This document shows positions 6,098 to 15,493 of a DNA stretch of 64,000 nt, piece by piece (positions within the stretch are counted from its first letter, which is position 1; each line of letters begins with the position of its first letter). The position numbers and the translations under genes are program-made. Under the pieces are notes generated by a model. It was given only the letters and a program-made list of their open reading frames with translations, made no database searches and was not told the origin of the DNA. Source of the DNA: a virus; the IMG/VR virus record IMGVR_UViG_3300024999_000048, positions 57,090 through 121,089 of that record; one strand, given 5' to 3'.

Positions 6098-6430
6098 ATG
6101 GAAGATGAAATAGTGGAGTATTTTATTGTTAATAGTGAATTAAATATGTCTGCTGGTAAGGTGTGCGCTCAAATAGGCCATGTGGCGACGATAATTGCAG
6201 TAGATTATTGTGATCAAGATATCTTTTGGAAGTGGTATCAAAAAGATCAGAAGAAAATAATTTTACGTGGTGAACAAAAGGATTTAGAGAAATTAATTGA
6301 TGCAGGATTCTATTATATTAGAGATAATGGGTGCAATGAAGTAGAAAAAGGGTCATTGACCTGTGTAGGACTTGAACCTATGTTAAAAAGTGAAGCACAG
6401 AAATTTGTGAAGAGATTACAATTGTATTAG
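6098..6430 (+). CDS. Peptidyl-tRNA hydrolase, PTH2 family
   Basis: LNMSAGKVCAQIGH, QKKIIL, IRDNG-x-EV, SLTCVG. Confidence 0.85.
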   Translation: MEDEIVEYFIVNSELNMSAGKVCAQIGHVATIIAVDYCDQDIFWKWYQKDQKKIILRGEQKDLEKLIDAGFYYIRDNGCNEVEKGSLTCVGLEPMLKSEAQKFVKRLQLY

Positions 6431-7274: not shown

Positions 7275-7303
7275 GAGTTAAATAAAAAGGAGTGATAATT
7301 ATT

Positions 7304-7708
7304 ATGCAAGTAGTAAATAAAGTTCAACAATCGCAACAGTTGGTTAGAGGTGGGATATACCTAGTTGATCTAGGTGAAGGAAGAGGATCTTTGCAAGGAA
7401 AGGTTCGTCCATGTGTGTTAATTTCGAACCGAATGGCTAATATCCACAGTTCAGTTTTGCATATATGTCCAGTGAGTTCAATTACTACTAAGTCAAAATT
7501 ACCGACGCATATTGGATTGAGCAAAAATAATTCTGGATTATTAAGGGATAGTATTGTACTCTGCGAACAAACACAACTGGTTACGAAGGATTCAATAGGT
7601 CGCATGGTTGGCCTTTGTTTGGAGGAAGATTTAATGAGAATTAATAGAGGAATTGCTATACAGTTCGGATTATCTGAAGTTAGAAATAATGTTGCTTATG
7701 CAAATTAA
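7304..7708 (+). CDS. PemK/MazF-family endoribonuclease-like protein 1 (no adjacent MazE)
   Basis: RGGIYLVDLG, GSLQGKVRPCVLISN, KSKLPTH, RDSIVLCEQ align with NdoA/MazF; ATG chosen after AAAAGGAG. Confidence 0.85.
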   Translation: MQVVNKVQQSQQLVRGGIYLVDLGEGRGSLQGKVRPCVLISNRMANIHSSVLHICPVSSITTKSKLPTHIGLSKNNSGLLRDSIVLCEQTQLVTKDSIGRMVGLCLEEDLMRINRGIAIQFGLSEVRNNVAYAN

Positions 7709-7727: not shown

Positions 7728-8630
7728 TTGAAAGAGTTTAAAGATTTAATTGGTCAAACGTTTAATAGATGGACTGTAATTGGCATATCTGATAAAACAA
7801 ATAAACATTATGATAGATATTGGTTATGTCAATGCAGTTGTGAAAATAAAACAATAAGAGAAGTTAGTGAACTTAGTTTGATAAAAGAGAGAAGTAAGAG
7901 TTGTGGATGTTATTCAAGTGAAGTAACGACTAAAATGAATAAAGATAGATCAATCAGAGATAAATATCCACATTACAAAAGAATATATAGTGTTTACGAT
8001 GGAATGAGAAAGAGATGCTATAATGAAAACAACGACAATTATAAATACTATGGTGCGAAAGGAGTTATTATATGTAAAGAGTGGTTAAGTGATTTTATGA
8101 AGTTTTATCATTGGTCAATAGAGAATGGATATAGTCCTGAATTGACTATAGACAGAATAGAAACACACGGTATATATGAACCAGATAATTGCAGATGGGC
8201 GACTCAAGAAGTTCAAGATTATAATAAAAGAAATACAGTATATCTTGAAATTGATGGAGAATCGAAAACTGTATTAGATTGGGAGAAGATATCAGGATTA
8301 TCTTATTCTGTTCTTTGGCAAAGATATAAAATATTTGGTTTTAGAACAAAAGAAGAAATGTTTAAACCTGTTAGACAAGTTACTAAGATAATACATAATG
8401 GCATAGAAAAAACATTAAGACAATTACATGAAGAGACAGGGTTAGGAATAGCTATTTTAGAGTGGAGAAATAAACAAGGATTAAAAGATGATGAATTAAT
8501 AAAACCAGCAAATAGATGGGCAGGACATGTAAAATCTACAGAAAAAAGAATTAGAAAGAAAAAGACAAAAAATGTAATAGATATACAAAACACAATAGAT
8601 ATAAGAGAAGAGGTGTTAACCATTGGTTGA
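7728..8630 (+). CDS. HNH-type homing endonuclease-like protein
   Basis: WLCQCSC/SCGC N-terminus, YGAKGVIIC, TIDRI...YEPDNCRWAT, C-terminal HTH-like repeats. Confidence 0.8.
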   Translation: MKEFKDLIGQTFNRWTVIGISDKTNKHYDRYWLCQCSCENKTIREVSELSLIKERSKSCGCYSSEVTTKMNKDRSIRDKYPHYKRIYSVYDGMRKRCYNENNDNYKYYGAKGVIICKEWLSDFMKFYHWSIENGYSPELTIDRIETHGIYEPDNCRWATQEVQDYNKRNTVYLEIDGESKTVLDWEKISGLSYSVLWQRYKIFGFRTKEEMFKPVRQVTKIIHNGIEKTLRQLHEETGLGIAILEWRNKQGLKDDELIKPANRWAGHVKSTEKRIRKKKTKNVIDIQNTIDIREEVLTIG

Positions 8631-9243
8631 AACCCTCATAGCATCACTGCTATTCTCTAAACTTCATCTTTACATAAAACTAGGCAAACTCCAAATACAC
8701 AAAGAATCATATCTAATAAAACCAATACTAAAACAATGGAGTTTCTATCCAGTAATATTTATGTCGATATTTTATGTCTATCTACAATACACAATAATGA
8801 ATCAGAATTACTATTTTCTTCAATATCAACATATAATAAAAAATGCTATATTAGGATCATATATGGTTCTAGGACTTGATGTTCTATTAAGGTATGAGAA
8901 GTATAAAGAGTATATTATTGCATGTTGTAGTCTCTTGTGTGGCTTTACATTGAATTATATTGTAATGCATTTTAATCAGGGGAAGATGCCGATTTTTCCC
9001 GATATCTCTTATTCAACTGGTTACACACAATATAATGTGATTATGAATGCTTCTAAGTTTAGCGATTTTCATGTTTTAGGTGATCACACAACAAGATTGA
9101 TATTTTTATCAGATATATTCGATATAGGAGGAAGTATTTGGTCTCCTGGAGATGTGCTTTGTAGATTATTTGCTTTTATAATCGTCTACTTTTCGGTTAA
9201 AGAAATTAGCAAAATACATATGAATAAAATAGAGAATCAATAA
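8623..9243 (+). CDS. DUF5317-like membrane protein
   Basis: LNYIVMHFNQGKMP, TRLIFLSDIF, WSPGD motifs; multiple TM segments. Confidence 0.65.
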   Translation: MVETLIASLLFSKLHLYIKLGKLQIHKESYLIKPILKQWSFYPVIFMSIFYVYLQYTIMNQNYYFLQYQHIIKNAILGSYMVLGLDVLLRYEKYKEYIIACCSLLCGFTLNYIVMHFNQGKMPIFPDISYSTGYTQYNVIMNASKFSDFHVLGDHTTRLIFLSDIFDIGGSIWSPGDVLCRLFAFIIVYFSVKEISKIHMNKIENQ

Positions 9244-9284: not shown

Positions 9285-9324
9285 TATTACAGGTTAAGAA
9301 ATGGATAAGAAAGAGGTAATACAT

Positions 9325-10140
9325 ATGCAAGGTGTAACAAATGCTTTATTAAACACAATTTTAGTTAGTATACCGGAGGAAGCTTTTATTGTGATTATGA
9401 CATTGGTTTTTCTAAAACGATTTGATATGTTGGACATACGAATGTGGAAACACAGTTTAAAATGGGTTATGGTTCCAACAATTCCTGTGGCAATGGTAAT
9501 AAATGTGTTTAGATACATAATAATCATACCAAAACCAACAATGTCTTTAATTGCTTTTATATTAATGAATGTACTAATCTTATATGTGGTTATAAAGAAC
9601 AGTTATAGTATTGATAAAAAATTAATTTTTAAAACAATAATTTTTACAGTTTTGAGTTTTATTATTGTTGGATTAATTGAATTGTTATATTATCCTCTTT
9701 CCCTTTCATTGCTACATAAGGAAATGAGTTTTTTTGATAATAAAATTATATACAATATAATAATATCACTTCCTGCAAGAATTATTGAAATATGTATTTT
9801 GACGTTTGTAGTAATAAAAAAGAACAATACAGTACAGGTAAATTTATTTAATACAATAGTCAAAAATAGATTTTTTACAAATAGTTTCTTAACTATAATT
9901 ATATCAATAGTGTCATTGATTATTTATATAGCAAAGTTAATAATTGTTGATAATATCATTATTCATATTAGTATTGTTGATCAGTTGATTTTAACTTCGA
10001 TTGTAATATCTGCACCAATAATATTGATCACATGGTTCTTAATGTTTATCAACTATTTGTTAACAAAAGAAAAACAAATACAACAGACTTATGAGAGTCT
10101 TGTTATGCAAGATGACATAATGCTTGATGTAGAAGATTAA
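9325..10140 (+). CDS. Polytopic membrane protein 1, AgrC-sensor-like, no kinase domain
   Basis: About 7 hydrophobic segments and a short acidic tail; paralogue of 12070-12921 (shared VSIPEEAFI, DIxMWK, LPAR); start set by RBS and paralogue alignment. Confidence 0.6.
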   Translation: MQGVTNALLNTILVSIPEEAFIVIMTLVFLKRFDMLDIRMWKHSLKWVMVPTIPVAMVINVFRYIIIIPKPTMSLIAFILMNVLILYVVIKNSYSIDKKLIFKTIIFTVLSFIIVGLIELLYYPLSLSLLHKEMSFFDNKIIYNIIISLPARIIEICILTFVVIKKNNTVQVNLFNTIVKNRFFTNSFLTIIISIVSLIIYIAKLIIVDNIIIHISIVDQLILTSIVISAPIILITWFLMFINYLLTKEKQIQQTYESLVMQDDIMLDVED

Positions 10141-10160
10141 CGTGAAAGGAGGTGAAATAA

Positions 10161-10277
10161 ATGAAAAAATACGCTATTATCGCTGGAGTAGTTGCCTTGT
10201 CTGCTACGATGTTCTCAAATGTTTTTGCATCATGGTTATTTTCACATCAACCAAAAACTCCTAATTGTATGAAATAA
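10161..10277 (+). CDS. agrD: AgrD-like cyclic autoinducing peptide precursor, 38 aa (not in ORF track)
   Basis: MKKYAIIAGVVALSATMFSNVFASWLFSHQPKTPNCMK; AAAGGAGGTG RBS; hydrophobic leader, SWLFS ring, HQPKTP tail as in clostridial AgrD. Confidence 0.9.
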   Translation: MKKYAIIAGVVALSATMFSNVFASWLFSHQPKTPNCMK

Positions 10278-10289
10278 TCTCACTCTACA

Positions 10290-10316
10290 TATAGGGAGGG
10301 TTTCAGCCTTCCCTAT
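10290..10316 (+). terminator. Hairpin terminator after agrD
   Basis: TATAGGGAGGGT-TTCA-GCCTTCCCTATA. Confidence 0.7.
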
Positions 10317-10344
10317 AATCATAATATAAATTAATAAGAAATCG

Positions 10345-10398
10345 CAAATAATTGTGTTGACATATTCATACATAGTAGGATATAATTATATTATCACG
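10345..10398 (+). promoter_or_regulatory. Consensus SigA promoter for MazF-like gene 2 and agrB
   Basis: CAAATAATTG (10345), TTGACA (10357), 18 nt, TATAAT (10381), ATTATCACG (10390). Confidence 0.75.
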
Positions 10399-10427
10399 TA
10401 AGGCAAATTATAAATATCTTATTAAAT

Positions 10428-11231
10428 ATGAAAAGGATGTGCATTACTATGTTCAACAAATTATTTGCTAAATCAACTACCTCTGAGGAAAACGTCAAAA
10501 AGGATTTTAAGAAATTAGCTAATTATGTACTCCATGCAAAAGGCCAAAATAGAACGATCAATGGATTTGCAGCAGATATGAAAACCGATTCTGAATACTT
10601 AACTCTTATTGCAACCGCTAAAATAAATTCATATCCACAAATTGATTTTCTTAAAATAATTGCAAACCATTCTCAAGGAAGGGTGTCTTTGCAAGAATTA
10701 ACGATGGCATGTGGGTATTCAAACTACACTAATAATGACATGGAACAGATAAAAAGTATTGAAGTTAGACGAGGGTGGTTCTGCTACGTAAACCTAGGTG
10801 ATGCTATGGACTCAGAATATGGAGGAAATCGAATGTGTTTAATTGTGCAAAACGACGTAGGAAACCATTTCTCATCGACCTCAATTATTTTACCTCTCAC
10901 CAGCAGACGAAAAACTCAACTCCCCACGCACGTTCAAGTCGGAATAAAAAATTGCGGCCTACCACAAGAATCAATTGTTAGTTGTGAGCAAATTCGTTGT
11001 GTAAGTAAACGGAGATTAATTCAAAGGGGAATAGTTCAGAAGGTATCTGAATGTCCTCCAGATGTAATGTTAAAGGTAGAGGTGGCTTTACTCAAGGCGC
11101 AAGGAGTTATACATCTTAAAATGAATGAACAGGAAGCTATTCAACACTTAATGAACATGAATACCCAGAAAACATTTCAGTATCAAAATAATTATGCAAG
11201 TGCAGGACAGCAGGTAGCCTATGCACGATAA
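10428..11231 (+). CDS. XRE-like HTH domain fused to PemK/MazF domain (MazF-like protein 2)
   Basis: N-terminal AKGQNRTINGFAADMKTDSEYLT...ELTMACGY (HTH-like); C-terminal RRGWFCYVNLG, SEYGGNRMCLIVQNDVGN, PLTS, LPTH, CEQIRCVSKRRL. Confidence 0.8.
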   Translation: MKRMCITMFNKLFAKSTTSEENVKKDFKKLANYVLHAKGQNRTINGFAADMKTDSEYLTLIATAKINSYPQIDFLKIIANHSQGRVSLQELTMACGYSNYTNNDMEQIKSIEVRRGWFCYVNLGDAMDSEYGGNRMCLIVQNDVGNHFSSTSIILPLTSRRKTQLPTHVQVGIKNCGLPQESIVSCEQIRCVSKRRLIQRGIVQKVSECPPDVMLKVEVALLKAQGVIHLKMNEQEAIQHLMNMNTQKTFQYQNNYASAGQQVAYAR

Positions 11232-11255
11232 AAGAAAGGAAGATTAAATAATTTA

Positions 11256-11897
11256 ATGAGTTTTATTGAATTTGTATCAAATCGTTCAGCTAAATGGTTA
11301 GCTAAAAATTACCCGAACAATGGCAAATATCCAACTGTAGAGGATCAAATAGAAGTTTTCACATATGGTTTTATGGTTATATGGGGTGCTATATTAAAGG
11401 GATTCATAATGGTATCACTAGCATCTATTTTCGGAGTAATACTTCCTGCTATGATTATCACATTAACCTTCAGTAGTTTAAGAATCATAGCAGGAGGATA
11501 TCATTTCGGTGAATATACAAAATGCATCACGTTTTCTACCATTCAATTCATAGGATCAGCATTAATAGTCAAGCACACACTTCAATATTGGTCACACCTA
11601 GACATACAAGGATTATTTCTATTTTGTTGGGCAATGGGATTATATATAAATTTTCGATATATTCCCAAAGACACACCAAACAAACTGATTACAGAACCAT
11701 TAGAAAGAGCAAAGTTTAAAAAATGGTCATTATTATACTTAATTTCATGGGTAACAATGATGACCATTTTATTATTCTTCAATCTAAAAATAATTGTTAT
11801 TGCAAGTTGTTTCGGATTATTATTAGAACTTTTCTCGATAAGCAAGGTTGGTTATGGTATATATTCTCTTGTAGATGGTATTAGTATACATAAATAA
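11256..11897 (+). CDS. agrB: AgrB-family peptide-processing membrane peptidase
   Basis: EVFTYG, LRIIAGGYH...KC (catalytic His/Cys), PKDTPNKLI. Confidence 0.92.
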   Translation: MSFIEFVSNRSAKWLAKNYPNNGKYPTVEDQIEVFTYGFMVIWGAILKGFIMVSLASIFGVILPAMIITLTFSSLRIIAGGYHFGEYTKCITFSTIQFIGSALIVKHTLQYWSHLDIQGLFLFCWAMGLYINFRYIPKDTPNKLITEPLERAKFKKWSLLYLISWVTMMTILLFFNLKIIVIASCFGLLLELFSISKVGYGIYSLVDGISIHK

Positions 11898-12069
11898 AAT
11901 CTCACAAACCTCACAACATCCCATCTTATCCCATAATTGCAATACTTTATTCAATTTAATTTCCCAACATTTATGATATATTTACAGCAATAAGTAATAG
12001 CACATAATAATTACACCCTTACTCAAAACAAACCAAAAACCTAATAATAGAGAAGGAAGGAAACCCTAT

Positions 12070-12921
12070 ATGCAATCTATTACTAATGCTGTATTAAACC
12101 TACTATTCGTTTCCATCCCAGAAGAAGCATTTATTGCAATCATAACTCTAACATTCCTAAATAAACTTGACAACTTATTCGACATCTATATGTGGAAGAA
12201 AAATCTAAAATGGCTTATGATAGCAACATTGCCCGCATCAATATTAGTTTGTGTTTTGCGATTTATGTTATTAGTTCCCCAAATTATTGTAATAAAATCG
12301 GTAATGGCACTCATGATCACATCAATGATATACATAGTAGTAAAAAACTCTGACAAAATAACTATTCTTTTAATATTTAAAACAGCAATGTTCACATTAG
12401 CAGGTTTTGTAATTACAGGAATATTGGAATATGCATATTGTCCAATAATATTTTCTCTATTACATAAACCTCAAGAATTCTTTAATAATGTTTTCCTCTA
12501 TAATTTTCTATTAGGATTACCCGCTAGAGTCCTCTATACTTGTGTTGTTGTTTTTATTATAATGAAGAAAAATGGCAAAGTTAAAGTTAATTTATTTGAT
12601 ATTTTAATTAAAAGCAAATTATTTATTGGCAGTTTTGTTGTTACAATATTGTCTGTAGTTTCATTAATTGTTTATATTGCTAAATTGGTAAAAAATGAAA
12701 GTATTTTATTTAGTTTCCAATTCATTGACCAATTTATCATTATTGTAATAATCACATCTGTTCCAACTATTTTAATTACTTTGTTATTAGTGGTTATTAA
12801 TTATTTAATATCTGGTGAGAGGAAGAATCAGCAAATGTATGAGAATATTGGCAATGAGGATGGTAAGAACAACGGCAACATTAATAATGAGGAAGATATT
12901 TATGACAACTATTATGAATAG
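12070..12921 (+). CDS. Polytopic membrane protein 2, AgrC-sensor-like, no kinase domain
   Basis: Paralogue of 9325-10140; about 7 TM segments; acidic/Asn-rich tail; no HisKA or HATPase motifs. Confidence 0.6.
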   Translation: MQSITNAVLNLLFVSIPEEAFIAIITLTFLNKLDNLFDIYMWKKNLKWLMIATLPASILVCVLRFMLLVPQIIVIKSVMALMITSMIYIVVKNSDKITILLIFKTAMFTLAGFVITGILEYAYCPIIFSLLHKPQEFFNNVFLYNFLLGLPARVLYTCVVVFIIMKKNGKVKVNLFDILIKSKLFIGSFVVTILSVVSLIVYIAKLVKNESILFSFQFIDQFIIIVIITSVPTILITLLLVVINYLISGERKNQQMYENIGNEDGKNNGNINNEEDIYDNYYE

Positions 12922-12972: not shown

Positions 12973-13100
12973 TTGACAAATCTCAATGAACAATGTTATA
13001 ATCATAGAGATAAATAATTAAAGTAATTAAGCATCAACCTTGCATATCGGCATATATTATTATATAATGGTATCAATACATAGCAACTTAATTTGTTGCT
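12973..13100 (+). promoter_or_regulatory. Tandem SigA promoters and palindromic operator upstream of the repressor-like pair
   Basis: TTGACA (12973), 18 nt, TG-n-TATAAT (12997); TTGCAT (13040), 17 nt, TATAAT (13063); AGCAAC-N7-GTTGCT (13082-13100). Confidence 0.7.
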
Positions 13101-13124
13101 GATATGTCAAAGGAGGAAAATAAT

Positions 13125-14477
13125 ATGAAAAAAGATCGTCAAGTTCTTGAGGATGTTCTTGATTTAGTAATTGAGGACTATTCTAATGACAACAAGGTTA
13201 TGGAACATGTTATAGTTAAATTATTAGAAAGAGGTATCCCAAGAGGACTTACAACTGGTCTGTTTACCAAAGCTACGCCATTGGTTTATGCTTCAGAAAC
13301 CGAATTGTGTTTATTTACAAAGTACCTCTTTGGATATACTCACAGACCAGAAATAAATCCAGAAGAATTTTTTACAGAAATAGACTTATCTTTAGCAGAA
13401 TCGTATCAAAAACTAGAAAAGGACAAAGTTAAATATATTTTGTTGCATAATGTTGATCAACTTACTCCAACTCAATTTTTATGTACAAAAGAGACTTATC
13501 AAAATAATAGTGTTTATATGGGGAATGGATTATTAACTTATAATCCAAATACTCAAAGACAACTTCTGAAACGAAGAAGTGGAGACAAAATCATTGAATC
13601 AATTAATGTTGGTGGGAAAAAAGTTACAGAAATTACTTCATCAATGTTAGACAATACATTTTGCCCAAATGCAATCATATGGAACATTAGAAAGATAAAC
13701 GGACAAGAGAAGTTTAAATACGATGCAAAATCTAGAACCTTATTAATTGAACCTGACAATATCACAACTTTTGTGGACATAATCGATGGTGCAAATCGTA
13801 CTTGTGGGATGATTAAGGTTGTTGAACTTAAACCTGAAATTGATAGAATTACTTCGATATATATTCATCATGTCACGGAAGAACGAGCGAATCAAATTAT
13901 AAAACAAGAAAGTTTAGCTGCTCCTATTCAGACAGAATGGGTTGATTTTAAAGATACCGCAAATCCAAATATGGAAGTTGCTAAAGGTATTAATGATCGT
14001 CAAAGAGAAAATGAAATGTTTAATCGAGTAGGGTTAGATTCCAAGGAATTGAAATTAGAAAACAAACTGGTTATGTTTGATACATTATCAAAAGCTATTG
14101 AATTTGTTTATGATCTTAAAGAAAAACCTGTTATTAGACAAAGAGAAGTAATTGATGATTTGGTAGAATTATTTAATAATGTCATTGGACTTAATTTTTC
14201 AAAATTTAATACAGAATTATCAGATGCCAGAGAAAAAACTTATATGGCACATGACAACATGTTTATTGGGTATATTATATTGGGAGATTTGTTAAGGCAG
14301 AAATATGAAACAGAATGGAAATCTGAGTTGGTGAAGGTATTAAAGTCTTTAGATTTTGATAAGTCTAATAAAATTTGGAAGAAAATTGGTATTGAAAACA
14401 ATGTAAATTTATCTACTTTTAAAAAGATTTCAGAGTATTTTAAAGATATTGTCTCTGAAAAGGAGGTTGCTGTATAA
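13125..14477 (+). CDS. DGQHR/DndB-ParB-like protein resembling SPbeta YopQ (SroE)
   Basis: YNPNTQR, IIDGANR (DGQHR-like) motif; about 450 aa; coupled (TAATG) to a YopR-like gene; ATG after AAGGAGG. Confidence 0.65.
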   Translation: MKKDRQVLEDVLDLVIEDYSNDNKVMEHVIVKLLERGIPRGLTTGLFTKATPLVYASETELCLFTKYLFGYTHRPEINPEEFFTEIDLSLAESYQKLEKDKVKYILLHNVDQLTPTQFLCTKETYQNNSVYMGNGLLTYNPNTQRQLLKRRSGDKIIESINVGGKKVTEITSSMLDNTFCPNAIIWNIRKINGQEKFKYDAKSRTLLIEPDNITTFVDIIDGANRTCGMIKVVELKPEIDRITSIYIHHVTEERANQIIKQESLAAPIQTEWVDFKDTANPNMEVAKGINDRQRENEMFNRVGLDSKELKLENKLVMFDTLSKAIEFVYDLKEKPVIRQREVIDDLVELFNNVIGLNFSKFNTELSDAREKTYMAHDNMFIGYIILGDLLRQKYETEWKSELVKVLKSLDFDKSNKIWKKIGIENNVNLSTFKKISEYFKDIVSEKEVAV

Positions 14478-15493
14478 TGTCGTTCACTATCGAAAGAACT
14501 TTATTCAATGAAGATCAAAAGAATCGTTTTCTTAATGAAAAATATCCAAATGAAAGCACTCGAACGACTAATACTTCTATCTTAAGAAGTGTAGGTAGAT
14601 TTGAAAATGATAAAAACAAAGATTTGTGTAAATTTAGTTATGAAGAAGTAAAAGAATTATTGATTGGTATGAAAAAGAAATCTGTGAAATCATTGGGTGT
14701 TGCTTATACAATTATTATGCAGTATCTTGATTGGTGTTTATTCAACAATTACAGTTCAATGAATGTTTTGAAGTTGGTTGATAAAAAAGAAGACCTTCCA
14801 AAATATGTTCATCAAGTAGCTCAGAAAAATTCTTATATCTCTAGAGATCAAATGTATTCTTACTGTGACCGGCTCTATAATTATGCCGACAAAGCAATGA
14901 TTGCATTATTATTTGAAAATGTTAGAGGAAGAACAGAAAAAGGTCATTCGTATGAAGAAATGAGAAATCTAAAAATTAATGATATATTCCCTGAAACAAA
15001 TACAATTGCCATAACTAGGGATGTAGATGATAATGTAAAGAATGACGCAGAGACTCCAAACCCAAGAACAATTAGTGTAGACCCAAGAACTATGGATATT
15101 CTCGTTGCAGCAGCCATAGAAGACACCTATCATCGTAGTAATGGTGAAGCGGAAGGTAGATTCGCTATATCTCAAACCAAAGACACTCCCTACCTTCTAA
15201 GAACGCTGGACAGGAAGAGTAGCGCTGGAGATGATAGAATTACGGTAGGAAATATTAGTGCAAGATTTAAAAATTTCCGTCAATATACTGGCATCAAATT
15301 TCTAAATCCAACCCTAGTATTTCAAAGTGGAATGTTTGACCGATGTTTTAAAGAGGAAGCAGATATTGGCGAGTTGAGTTCAGATAATTTTCGATATATA
15401 CTCAGTGATTTAGAATTGGATGAAAGGGGTTGGCAAGGATTAAAAGAAACTTATGAAAGTTACAAACAAATACAGTCTACAGTCCCTAAATAA
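14477..15493 (+). CDS. Tyrosine-recombinase-fold protein resembling SPbeta master repressor YopR (MrpR/SroF)
   Basis: FNEDQKNRFL...FENDKNKDLCKFSYEEV N-terminus, LLFENVRG...EMRNLKINDI, FQSG in place of the catalytic HxxR. Confidence 0.7.
   Translation: MSFTIERTLFNEDQKNRFLNEKYPNESTRTTNTSILRSVGRFENDKNKDLCKFSYEEVKELLIGMKKKSVKSLGVAYTIIMQYLDWCLFNNYSSMNVLKLVDKKEDLPKYVHQVAQKNSYISRDQMYSYCDRLYNYADKAMIALLFENVRGRTEKGHSYEEMRNLKINDIFPETNTIAITRDVDDNVKNDAETPNPRTISVDPRTMDILVAAAIEDTYHRSNGEAEGRFAISQTKDTPYLLRTLDRKSSAGDDRITVGNISARFKNFRQYTGIKFLNPTLVFQSGMFDRCFKEEADIGELSSDNFRYILSDLELDERGWQGLKETYESYKQIQSTVPK

Follow-up and report, generated by a model that had tools for sequence, protein, structure and literature searches.

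To our knowledge, agr signalling has always been described as a route that goes from a peptide to the AgrC kinase and from there to AgrA. The AgrC-type (HPK10) kinases have VirS among their relatives, and in staphylococci the AgrC sensors and AgrD vary together, as agr groups. The phage phiCDHM1 reportedly has agrB and agrD together with a complete agrC kinase. The presence of agr quorum-sensing genes in this phage of Clostridioides difficile has been published (PMC3901668). Here we analysed the final 64 kb (hereafter, the window) of the 121 kb IMG/VR virus record IMGVR_UViG_3300024999_000048, which is linear and 72% complete according to CheckV and belongs to a large Clostridium-type phage. 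The window contains an agr cassette in which the genes of two paralogous membrane proteins, TM_A and TM_B, flank agrD, a gene coding for a helix-turn-helix (HTH) region fused to a MazF-type endoribonuclease (HTH-MazF), and agrB. Both membrane proteins resemble the sensor of AgrC and have no kinase, an architecture that points to peptide sensing without phosphorylation.

TM_A (271 amino acids (aa), the position-1 paralogue) is encoded at 9325-10140 and TM_B (283 aa, the position-2 paralogue) at 12070-12921, both on the + strand. A first-pass annotation of this DNA had described them as paralogues of about seven transmembrane (TM) helices each, with short acidic tails and no kinase domain, and our analysis agrees with that description. 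By BLASTP the two proteins align end to end with 45% identity and 70% positives over 265 aa (E 1e-80), the alignment containing the motifs VSIPEEAFI, MWK, LPAR, VNLF, and QQxYE; approximately seven TM helices and an acidic tail were found in each of them, and neither HisKA, HATPase, nor any other domain was detected in either one with Pfam and NCBIfam. PHROGs and PADLOC did not give a match for TM_A or TM_B. The ATG of TM_A at 9325 is preceded by the ribosome-binding site AGAGG and that of TM_B at 12070 by GAAGGAAGG; for TM_A, the start at 9325 was favoured over an upstream ATG at 9301 because most homologues begin with MQGVTNALLN. The C-terminal tails end in LVMQDDIMLDVED (TM_A) and NNEEDIYDNYYE (TM_B), the latter being a different tail, acidic and aromatic, within the same fold family.

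The AlphaFold2 model of TM_A, built with 28 homologues, had a predicted local distance difference test (pLDDT) value of 84.2 and showed seven long helices, the last of which extends into the tail. In an alignment of 28 sequences of the phage clade (A1), the mean number of lysine plus arginine residues near the loops was 10.1 for odd loops versus 4.7 for even loops, with the basic residues clustered at loops 1, 3, and 5, and therefore a topology with the N-terminus out, the C-terminus in, and a cytoplasmic tail is predicted. The hallmark residues of TM_A are S15-x-P17-E18 in TM1, E119 with P124 in TM4, and, where TM5 begins, P150-x-R152; the (V/L)SxPE, E119/P124, and P150-x-R152 motifs are all present in both TM_A and TM_B. 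It was also possible to see in A1 that the tail motif, KEKQIQQTYENLVxQDDVMLDVED, is conserved above the level of the TM body. A CPBP/MroQ-like protease was considered for the PEE motif and discarded, since the invariant columns include no conserved His and no EExxxR-type motif such as defines the CPBP proteins.

The relation to AgrC, which the first-pass annotation had postulated, was sustained by profile matches to the sensors of AgrC-type kinases and by the position in the locus. When the family profile (A2) was compared by hhalign with the sensor halves of a Ruminiclostridium AgrC kinase, located in a locus formed by agrB, an AgrD-like peptide, and the kinase, a match with Prob 81.8, E 1.1e-5, and a score of 43.7 was obtained, the controls being 18.1 for the reversed A2 and at most 16.1 for 22 column shuffles. 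Likewise, the weaker A2 matches in 400 Clostridia-class genomes include the N-terminal ~230 residues of three proteins of 436-453 aa that carry SPOB_a, HATPase_c, and HATPase_c_5 and adjoin Response_reg-LytTR regulators. These three kinases have VSVPES, LAEGISVPLL, and TLPHL at the places where the family motifs (VSxPE, E..xxP, and LP) fall, and one of them was aligned with A2 over 139 columns with Prob 92.7 and E 4.3e-7. The A1 profile gave no match against the PDB sequences, and the PDB offered no informative structure for this comparison.

The second half of the kinase is not there. TM_A stops ~27 aa after TM7, and the related kinases show RHDFYNHL or RHEYKNHL ~30 aa after TM7; the H-box position is occupied in A1 by Tyr (QQTYEN), and the phospho-accepting histidine is not present. 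The GHKL ATPase domain HATPase_c_5 had no Pfam match in TM_A or TM_B. The earlier statement that the two proteins have no phosphotransfer module thus holds for HisKA, SPOB_a, and HATPase domains. At its 72% completeness, the 121 kb record yielded neither a kinase (HATPase_c_5) nor a LytTR gene, and no LytTR gene was adjacent in the bacterial loci that were scanned. We did not file TM_A and TM_B in the AgrC kinase family because three of its defining features were tested and found to be missing.

With a word-index search 40 relatives of 154-283 aa were obtained, none of them with a Pfam domain and the few named ones registered as "hypothetical protein"; the same type of search with A2 (8000 scored candidates) recovered the phage clade again and nothing else. 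The exhaustive profile search against 1.84 billion representatives, clustered at 50% identity, gave 221 matches at E ≤ 0.001. The lengths are known for the best 150 of these 221 representatives, all of which have at most 326 aa, with no kinase-fused form among them. No real Pfam domain and no HATPase_c_5 were observed in 24 distant family members. The bacterial members of ~290-340 aa have a helical cytoplasmic extension of ~55 residues in place of the phage-type tail. In the 400 Clostridia-class genomes the A2 hidden Markov model found matches at E ≤ 0.01 in 47, 11 of them with a best E below 1e-10, and all the matches below 1e-10 lie in open frames of 150-343 aa. The family is present on at least 13 phage contigs, and among its cultured, non-pathogenic carriers are Ruminiclostridium hungatei DSM 14427, R. 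cellobioparum, and Anaerobacterium chartisolvens DSM 27016. In a protein atlas, apart from the cluster of the protein itself, a cluster automatically named "putative Sensory transduction protein kinase" scored 0.89, which is below the trusted level and serves as a lead only. We also observed in one Clostridia genome (L097:4310-5494) a relative of 394 aa beside agrB, with a C-terminal extension of ~150 aa in which Pfam found no domain; this protein may be a further output variant without a kinase. This is an unnamed "SIPEE-motif" 7-TM family, of ~250-340 aa, with (V/L)SxPE and with an AgrD gene immediately downstream. Its motifs are complete in both window proteins; agrD follows TM_A directly, and TM_B is the position-2 copy located after agrB.

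The order TM, agrD, long MazF, and agrB is kept in all 13 viral loci and in two phage-like contigs from bacterial assemblies (L016 and L017). An AgrD-like open reading frame (ORF) is found directly downstream of the TM gene in 14/14 phage-type loci and in the 26/26 loci of the bacterial set (L018-L043), that is, in 40/40; in the survey of the class, which partly overlaps this set, it was found in 10/12 loci. The bacterial AgrD-like ORFs of the 26 loci end in [C/S]xxxx..QP[K/R]xPK. In that set agrB is adjacent in 12/26 loci and an XRE HTH gene in 16/26, almost always convergent and just after agrD; ten loci have no regulator nearby, and the loci of the bacterial relatives have no adjacent MazF. 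HTH-MazF is present in 14/14 phage-type loci. A full second TM copy after agrB occurs in six of the 14 (the window, L005, L007, and L008-L010).

The agrD gene (10161-10277, + strand) codes for a precursor of 38 aa that matches TIGR04223 with E 7.6e-5 and a score of 22.8, over a cut-off of 19. It has Ser instead of Cys at the ring-forming position (ASWLFS|HQPKTP), and therefore a lactone and not a thiolactone peptide is predicted. The same Ser is found in 14/14 phage-type AgrDs, and Cys is found in most of the bacterial TM-linked ones (ACFWGL|HQP).

By comparing the window with related phage loci, we examined how the identity is distributed along the cassette. In L007 the identity to the window protein was 82% for DUF5317, 82% for HTH-MazF, 84% for TM_B, and 92% for AgrD, of which the core alone differs (SWLFS vs SMFFS), and it was 42% for TM_A. 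In L003, L004, and L016, which have no TM_B, it was 67-70% for TM_A, 34-64% for DUF5317, 65-80% for HTH-MazF, and 69-82% for AgrD, the cores being SWLGA, SWLFT, and SWLWS. In the phylogenetic tree the TM_A clades correspond to the AgrD core classes SWLxx, SxFxx, and SA.W, while the position-2 copies group in a single clade (100/99) inside the phage clade (100/100). TM_A and the peptide core thus show a joint variation that is independent of the flanks and resembles that of an agr specificity group. TM_B shows greater conservation, and its variation does not go along with that of the core.

The HTH-MazF gene lies on the + strand at 10446-11231; its ORF opens at 10428, and the start at 10446 (MFNK...) is the probable one according to the alignments. 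Residues 115-222 match PF02452 with E 2.3e-21, and the C-terminal domain is superimposable with MazF of B. subtilis and S. aureus (Foldseek E 6e-12, TM score 0.88, ~35% identity), so that, judged on these matches, this part of the protein is a true MazF. The N-terminal ~100 residues were aligned by hhalign over 94 columns, with Prob 96.4 and E 1e-9, to a homologous stand-alone XRE protein from the bacterial locus L018, which in turn matches HTH_3 at 4e-7; therefore, the phage carries the regulator of the family, fused to an RNase. The other MazF of the window is MazF1, a short MazF/PemK endoribonuclease encoded at 7292-7708 on the + strand (PF02452 E 1.8e-20; phrog_1936, MazF-like). No canonical antitoxin gene was seen beside MazF1, and the 121 kb record, with its two MazF genes, gave no match to a MazE/AbrB or ribbon-helix-helix (RHH) antitoxin (PF04014, PF01402).

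Both MazF proteins have similar conserved tails, MazF1 ending in NNVAYAN (7680-7708) and the long MazF in GQQVAYAR (11190-11231), with the final Ala of the latter tail invariant in 14 homologues (A3). Tails of this kind are similar to the SsrA-type C-terminal degradation tags of Bacillota, and by this analogy both toxins may be short-lived by design. A MazF-resistant phage transcriptome was also considered and rejected, as no strong depletion of 5-mers or 6-mers was present on the + strand of the window; UACAU was counted 138 times on this strand versus 131 for its reverse complement.

Two signals probably divide the cassette. Directly 3' of agrD there is a stem-loop (10291-10316, + strand) for which RNAalifold gave, over 11 loci, 10 pairs, with 5 compensatory and 0 broken; many copies have a CUUCGG loop, and the element is probably a terminator or a structure that stabilises the mRNA of the peptide. 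Ahead of the HTH-MazF gene, at 10357-10386 on the + strand, we located a sigma-70 consensus promoter, TTGACA-18-TATAAT, with a 12/12 match, whose -35 and -10 boxes are conserved across 11 loci. Promoter-like sites as a whole numbered 49 against 48.4 in the shuffled sequences, with no excess, and because of this the promoter is supported by its perfect match together with its conservation and not by the site count. Taking into account the stem-loop and the promoter, the genes appear to be transcribed as two units, (MazF1)-DUF5317-TM_A-agrD on one side and HTH-MazF-agrB-(TM_B) on the other.

As to the remaining genes, agrB (11256-11897, + strand) codes for the AgrD-processing membrane peptidase (PF04647 E 7.2e-34). 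DUF5317 is a polytopic membrane protein encoded at 8623-9243 on the + strand (PF17248 E 6.3e-19), and its gene immediately precedes the first TM gene in 11/13 viral loci as well as in L016 and L017, with MazF1 further upstream in most phage-type loci. In L004 and L016 the end of the MazF1 gene overlaps the beginning of the DUF5317 gene, and in L011 MazF1 comes right before the TM gene. Residues D164, D167, and G176-D177 of DUF5317 are invariant in 12 sequences; as pure speculation, DUF5317 might act as an intramembrane aspartyl protease cleaving off the AgrD leader, or as the partner of MazF1. A homing-endonuclease-like HNH endonuclease gene (7728-8630; phrog_374 E 2.6e-67) is located between MazF1 and DUF5317 in the window and after agrB in L003; it is a mobile insertion outside the cassette proper. 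Slightly upstream of the cassette there is a PTH2-type peptidyl-tRNA hydrolase (6098-6430; PF01981 E 1.4e-18). The genes of a DndB-like protein (13104-14477; PF14072) and of an integrase-like, MrpR-type tyrosine recombinase (14477-15493; phrog_5830, "integrase") come after the cassette in most of the related phages, and at 12973-13002, ahead of the DndB-like gene, there is another promoter that matches the consensus perfectly and has an extended -10. The quorum-sensing cassette may thus feed into an integration or plasmid-resolution module. The GC content of the window is ~28%, the + strand carries nearly all the ORFs of at least 110 aa, and the phage collection gave no DNA (megablast) or protein (tblastn) match to the region.

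A key aspect of the cassette is how a sensor of this type could pass on its signal. We give a little less than an even chance to the reading in which TM_A and TM_B are kinase-less receptors of an autoinducing peptide (AIP) and hand on the signal through contact with another protein, the HTH(-MazF) regulator being the prime candidate. Both would be stand-alone AgrC-type sensor modules of seven TM helices with the N-terminus outside, having a cytoplasmic helix of ~27 residues where AgrC would run on into its kinase. Going by the protein families, AgrB would make a lactone AIP from AgrD, and the AIP would bind the TM bundle from the outside, as suggested by the homology to kinase sensors and the co-variation with the AgrD core. 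Without a kinase, the signal would pass through the conserved tail by protein-protein contact, and the likeliest partner of the tail would be the XRE-type HTH regulator of the family, which is alone in bacteria and MazF-fused in the phages. Depending on peptide occupancy, HTH-MazF might be kept at the membrane or be free to bind DNA and cut RNA. TM_A would be the cognate receptor of the phage's own peptide, and TM_B probably responds to a different signal, a host peptide for example, or is coupled to a different output. The first-pass annotation had raised the possibility that one receptor serves the phage peptide and the other that of the host, which fits the pattern of conservation. A more specific version, which we place on the doubtful side, would have the sensor-only AgrC relative gating XRE directly, the phage peptide timing the cutting of host and viral RNA together with the expression of the neighbouring recombinase module, and TM_B hearing a different peptide, possibly that of the host. 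The prediction of the complex formed by two HTH-MazF and residues 232-271 of TM_A, run without controls, gave an interface score ipSAE of 0.00 in both runs, the mark being 0.32.

The co-variation of TM_A with the peptide core is compatible with a receptor but has to be read with care, as it would fit a core-specific processing factor equally well. An enzyme or an exporter would be just as compatible with it, and TM_A and TM_B could then be maturation, export, or immunity factors for the AgrD-derived peptide, handling, for example, an intermediate left after AgrB. AgrD is in fact the invariant partner of the family, ahead of AgrB (12/26 bacterial loci) or XRE (16/26). However, the sole detectable relatives outside the family are the sensor domains of histidine kinases, there is no conserved Cys/His or protease-like motif among the invariant residues, and a pair of paralogues beside a single AgrD is less easily accounted for on these terms, so that we consider such a role unlikely. 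A different function, that of interference, would follow if the proteins were decoys or dominant-negative partners, as the first-pass annotation had also offered: a truncated AgrC would soak up the peptide or pair with a host AgrC-type kinase, blunting host quorum sensing. Full AgrC-type kinases are indeed also encoded in the carrier genomes that were examined, and the protein ends where the kinases go on into the H-box, ~30 residues after TM7. Nevertheless, the family is widespread in bacterial chromosomes, has a dedicated AgrD in 26/26 loci and often its own XRE, and therefore looks more like a self-contained system than an interference device; moreover, the tail is strongly conserved and a pure sink would not need it. 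Of all the readings considered we hold this one to be the least probable.

It had also been proposed that the acidic tails resemble the MazF-binding end of MazE and that each receptor sequesters one of the two MazF proteins. The one-to-one assignment is not supported, since in six of the 14 phage-type loci (L003, L004, L006, L011, L014, and L016) a single TM protein accompanies both MazFs, and in L012 both MazFs occur with only a fragment of a second TM gene. In its general form, the proposal is that the proteins are membrane-tethered antitoxins whose MazE-like tails plug the RNA groove of MazF1 and/or HTH-MazF until the peptide alters the receptor. This would account for the two MazF genes of a record in which no MazE/AbrB or RHH was found, for the conservation of the distal acidic tail in the phage clade, which always carries HTH-MazF, and for the location of MazF1, which shares one run of genes with DUF5317 and TM_A and in L011 stands directly before TM_A. 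Besides the loci with two MazFs and one TM protein, it is opposed by the TM_A of L008, which has no distal acidic tail, by the sequence search, in which neither tail matched any solved chain, MazE included, and by the bacterial relatives, which work without an adjacent MazF; a real antitoxin gene could also sit in the missing part of the 72%-complete record. We judge this explanation quite improbable, although less so than the decoy, and rank it below the general model of contact between receptor and regulator.

The receptor model, if correct, would explain how sensing occurs at "orphan" agrD or agrBD loci without agrCA, and through it the phages would gain a peptide channel wired to an RNase toxin. 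In the literature search, neither an AgrC-like protein without a kinase nor an agr-MazF cassette in a phage came up. The passages on the four agrBD pairs of R. cellulolyticum in PMC8251862 do not mention the membrane protein of the family, and the supplementary tables of that article could list the gene. The TM proteins belong to a widespread, undescribed family consisting of an AgrC sensor minus the kinase, tied to its own AgrD and frequently to XRE, for which we infer the signalling route.

By comparison with the described systems, the cassette shares with MazE-MazF the genuine MazF nucleases and has TM proteins with acidic C-terminal tails; it differs in that TM_A and TM_B have no MazE-type AbrB/RHH DNA-binding domain and in that one MazF is fused to XRE. 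The LytTR regulatory systems, such as HdrRM and BrsRM of Streptococcus mutans, are formed by a membrane inhibitor protein and a transcription factor. They offer an analogy in the way of working, given that control passes from a membrane protein to a DNA-binding protein of the cytoplasm and involves no phosphotransfer, but the protein families are others on both sides and there is no agr-type peptide ligand in them. With respect to phiCDHM1, the window cassette has a kinase-less receptor, two paralogues of it, and HTH-MazF between agrD and agrB. In contrast to AgrC, TM_A and TM_B have no H-box histidine, SPOB_a/DHp, or HATPase_c_5, no LytTR was found in the locus or the record, and the gene order is TM-agrD and not agrD-agrC. 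What they have in common with AgrC is a polytopic N-terminal sensor with profile homology, the presence of agrB and agrD in the locus, and a sensor and a peptide core that, in the phage cassette, appear to be hypervariable.

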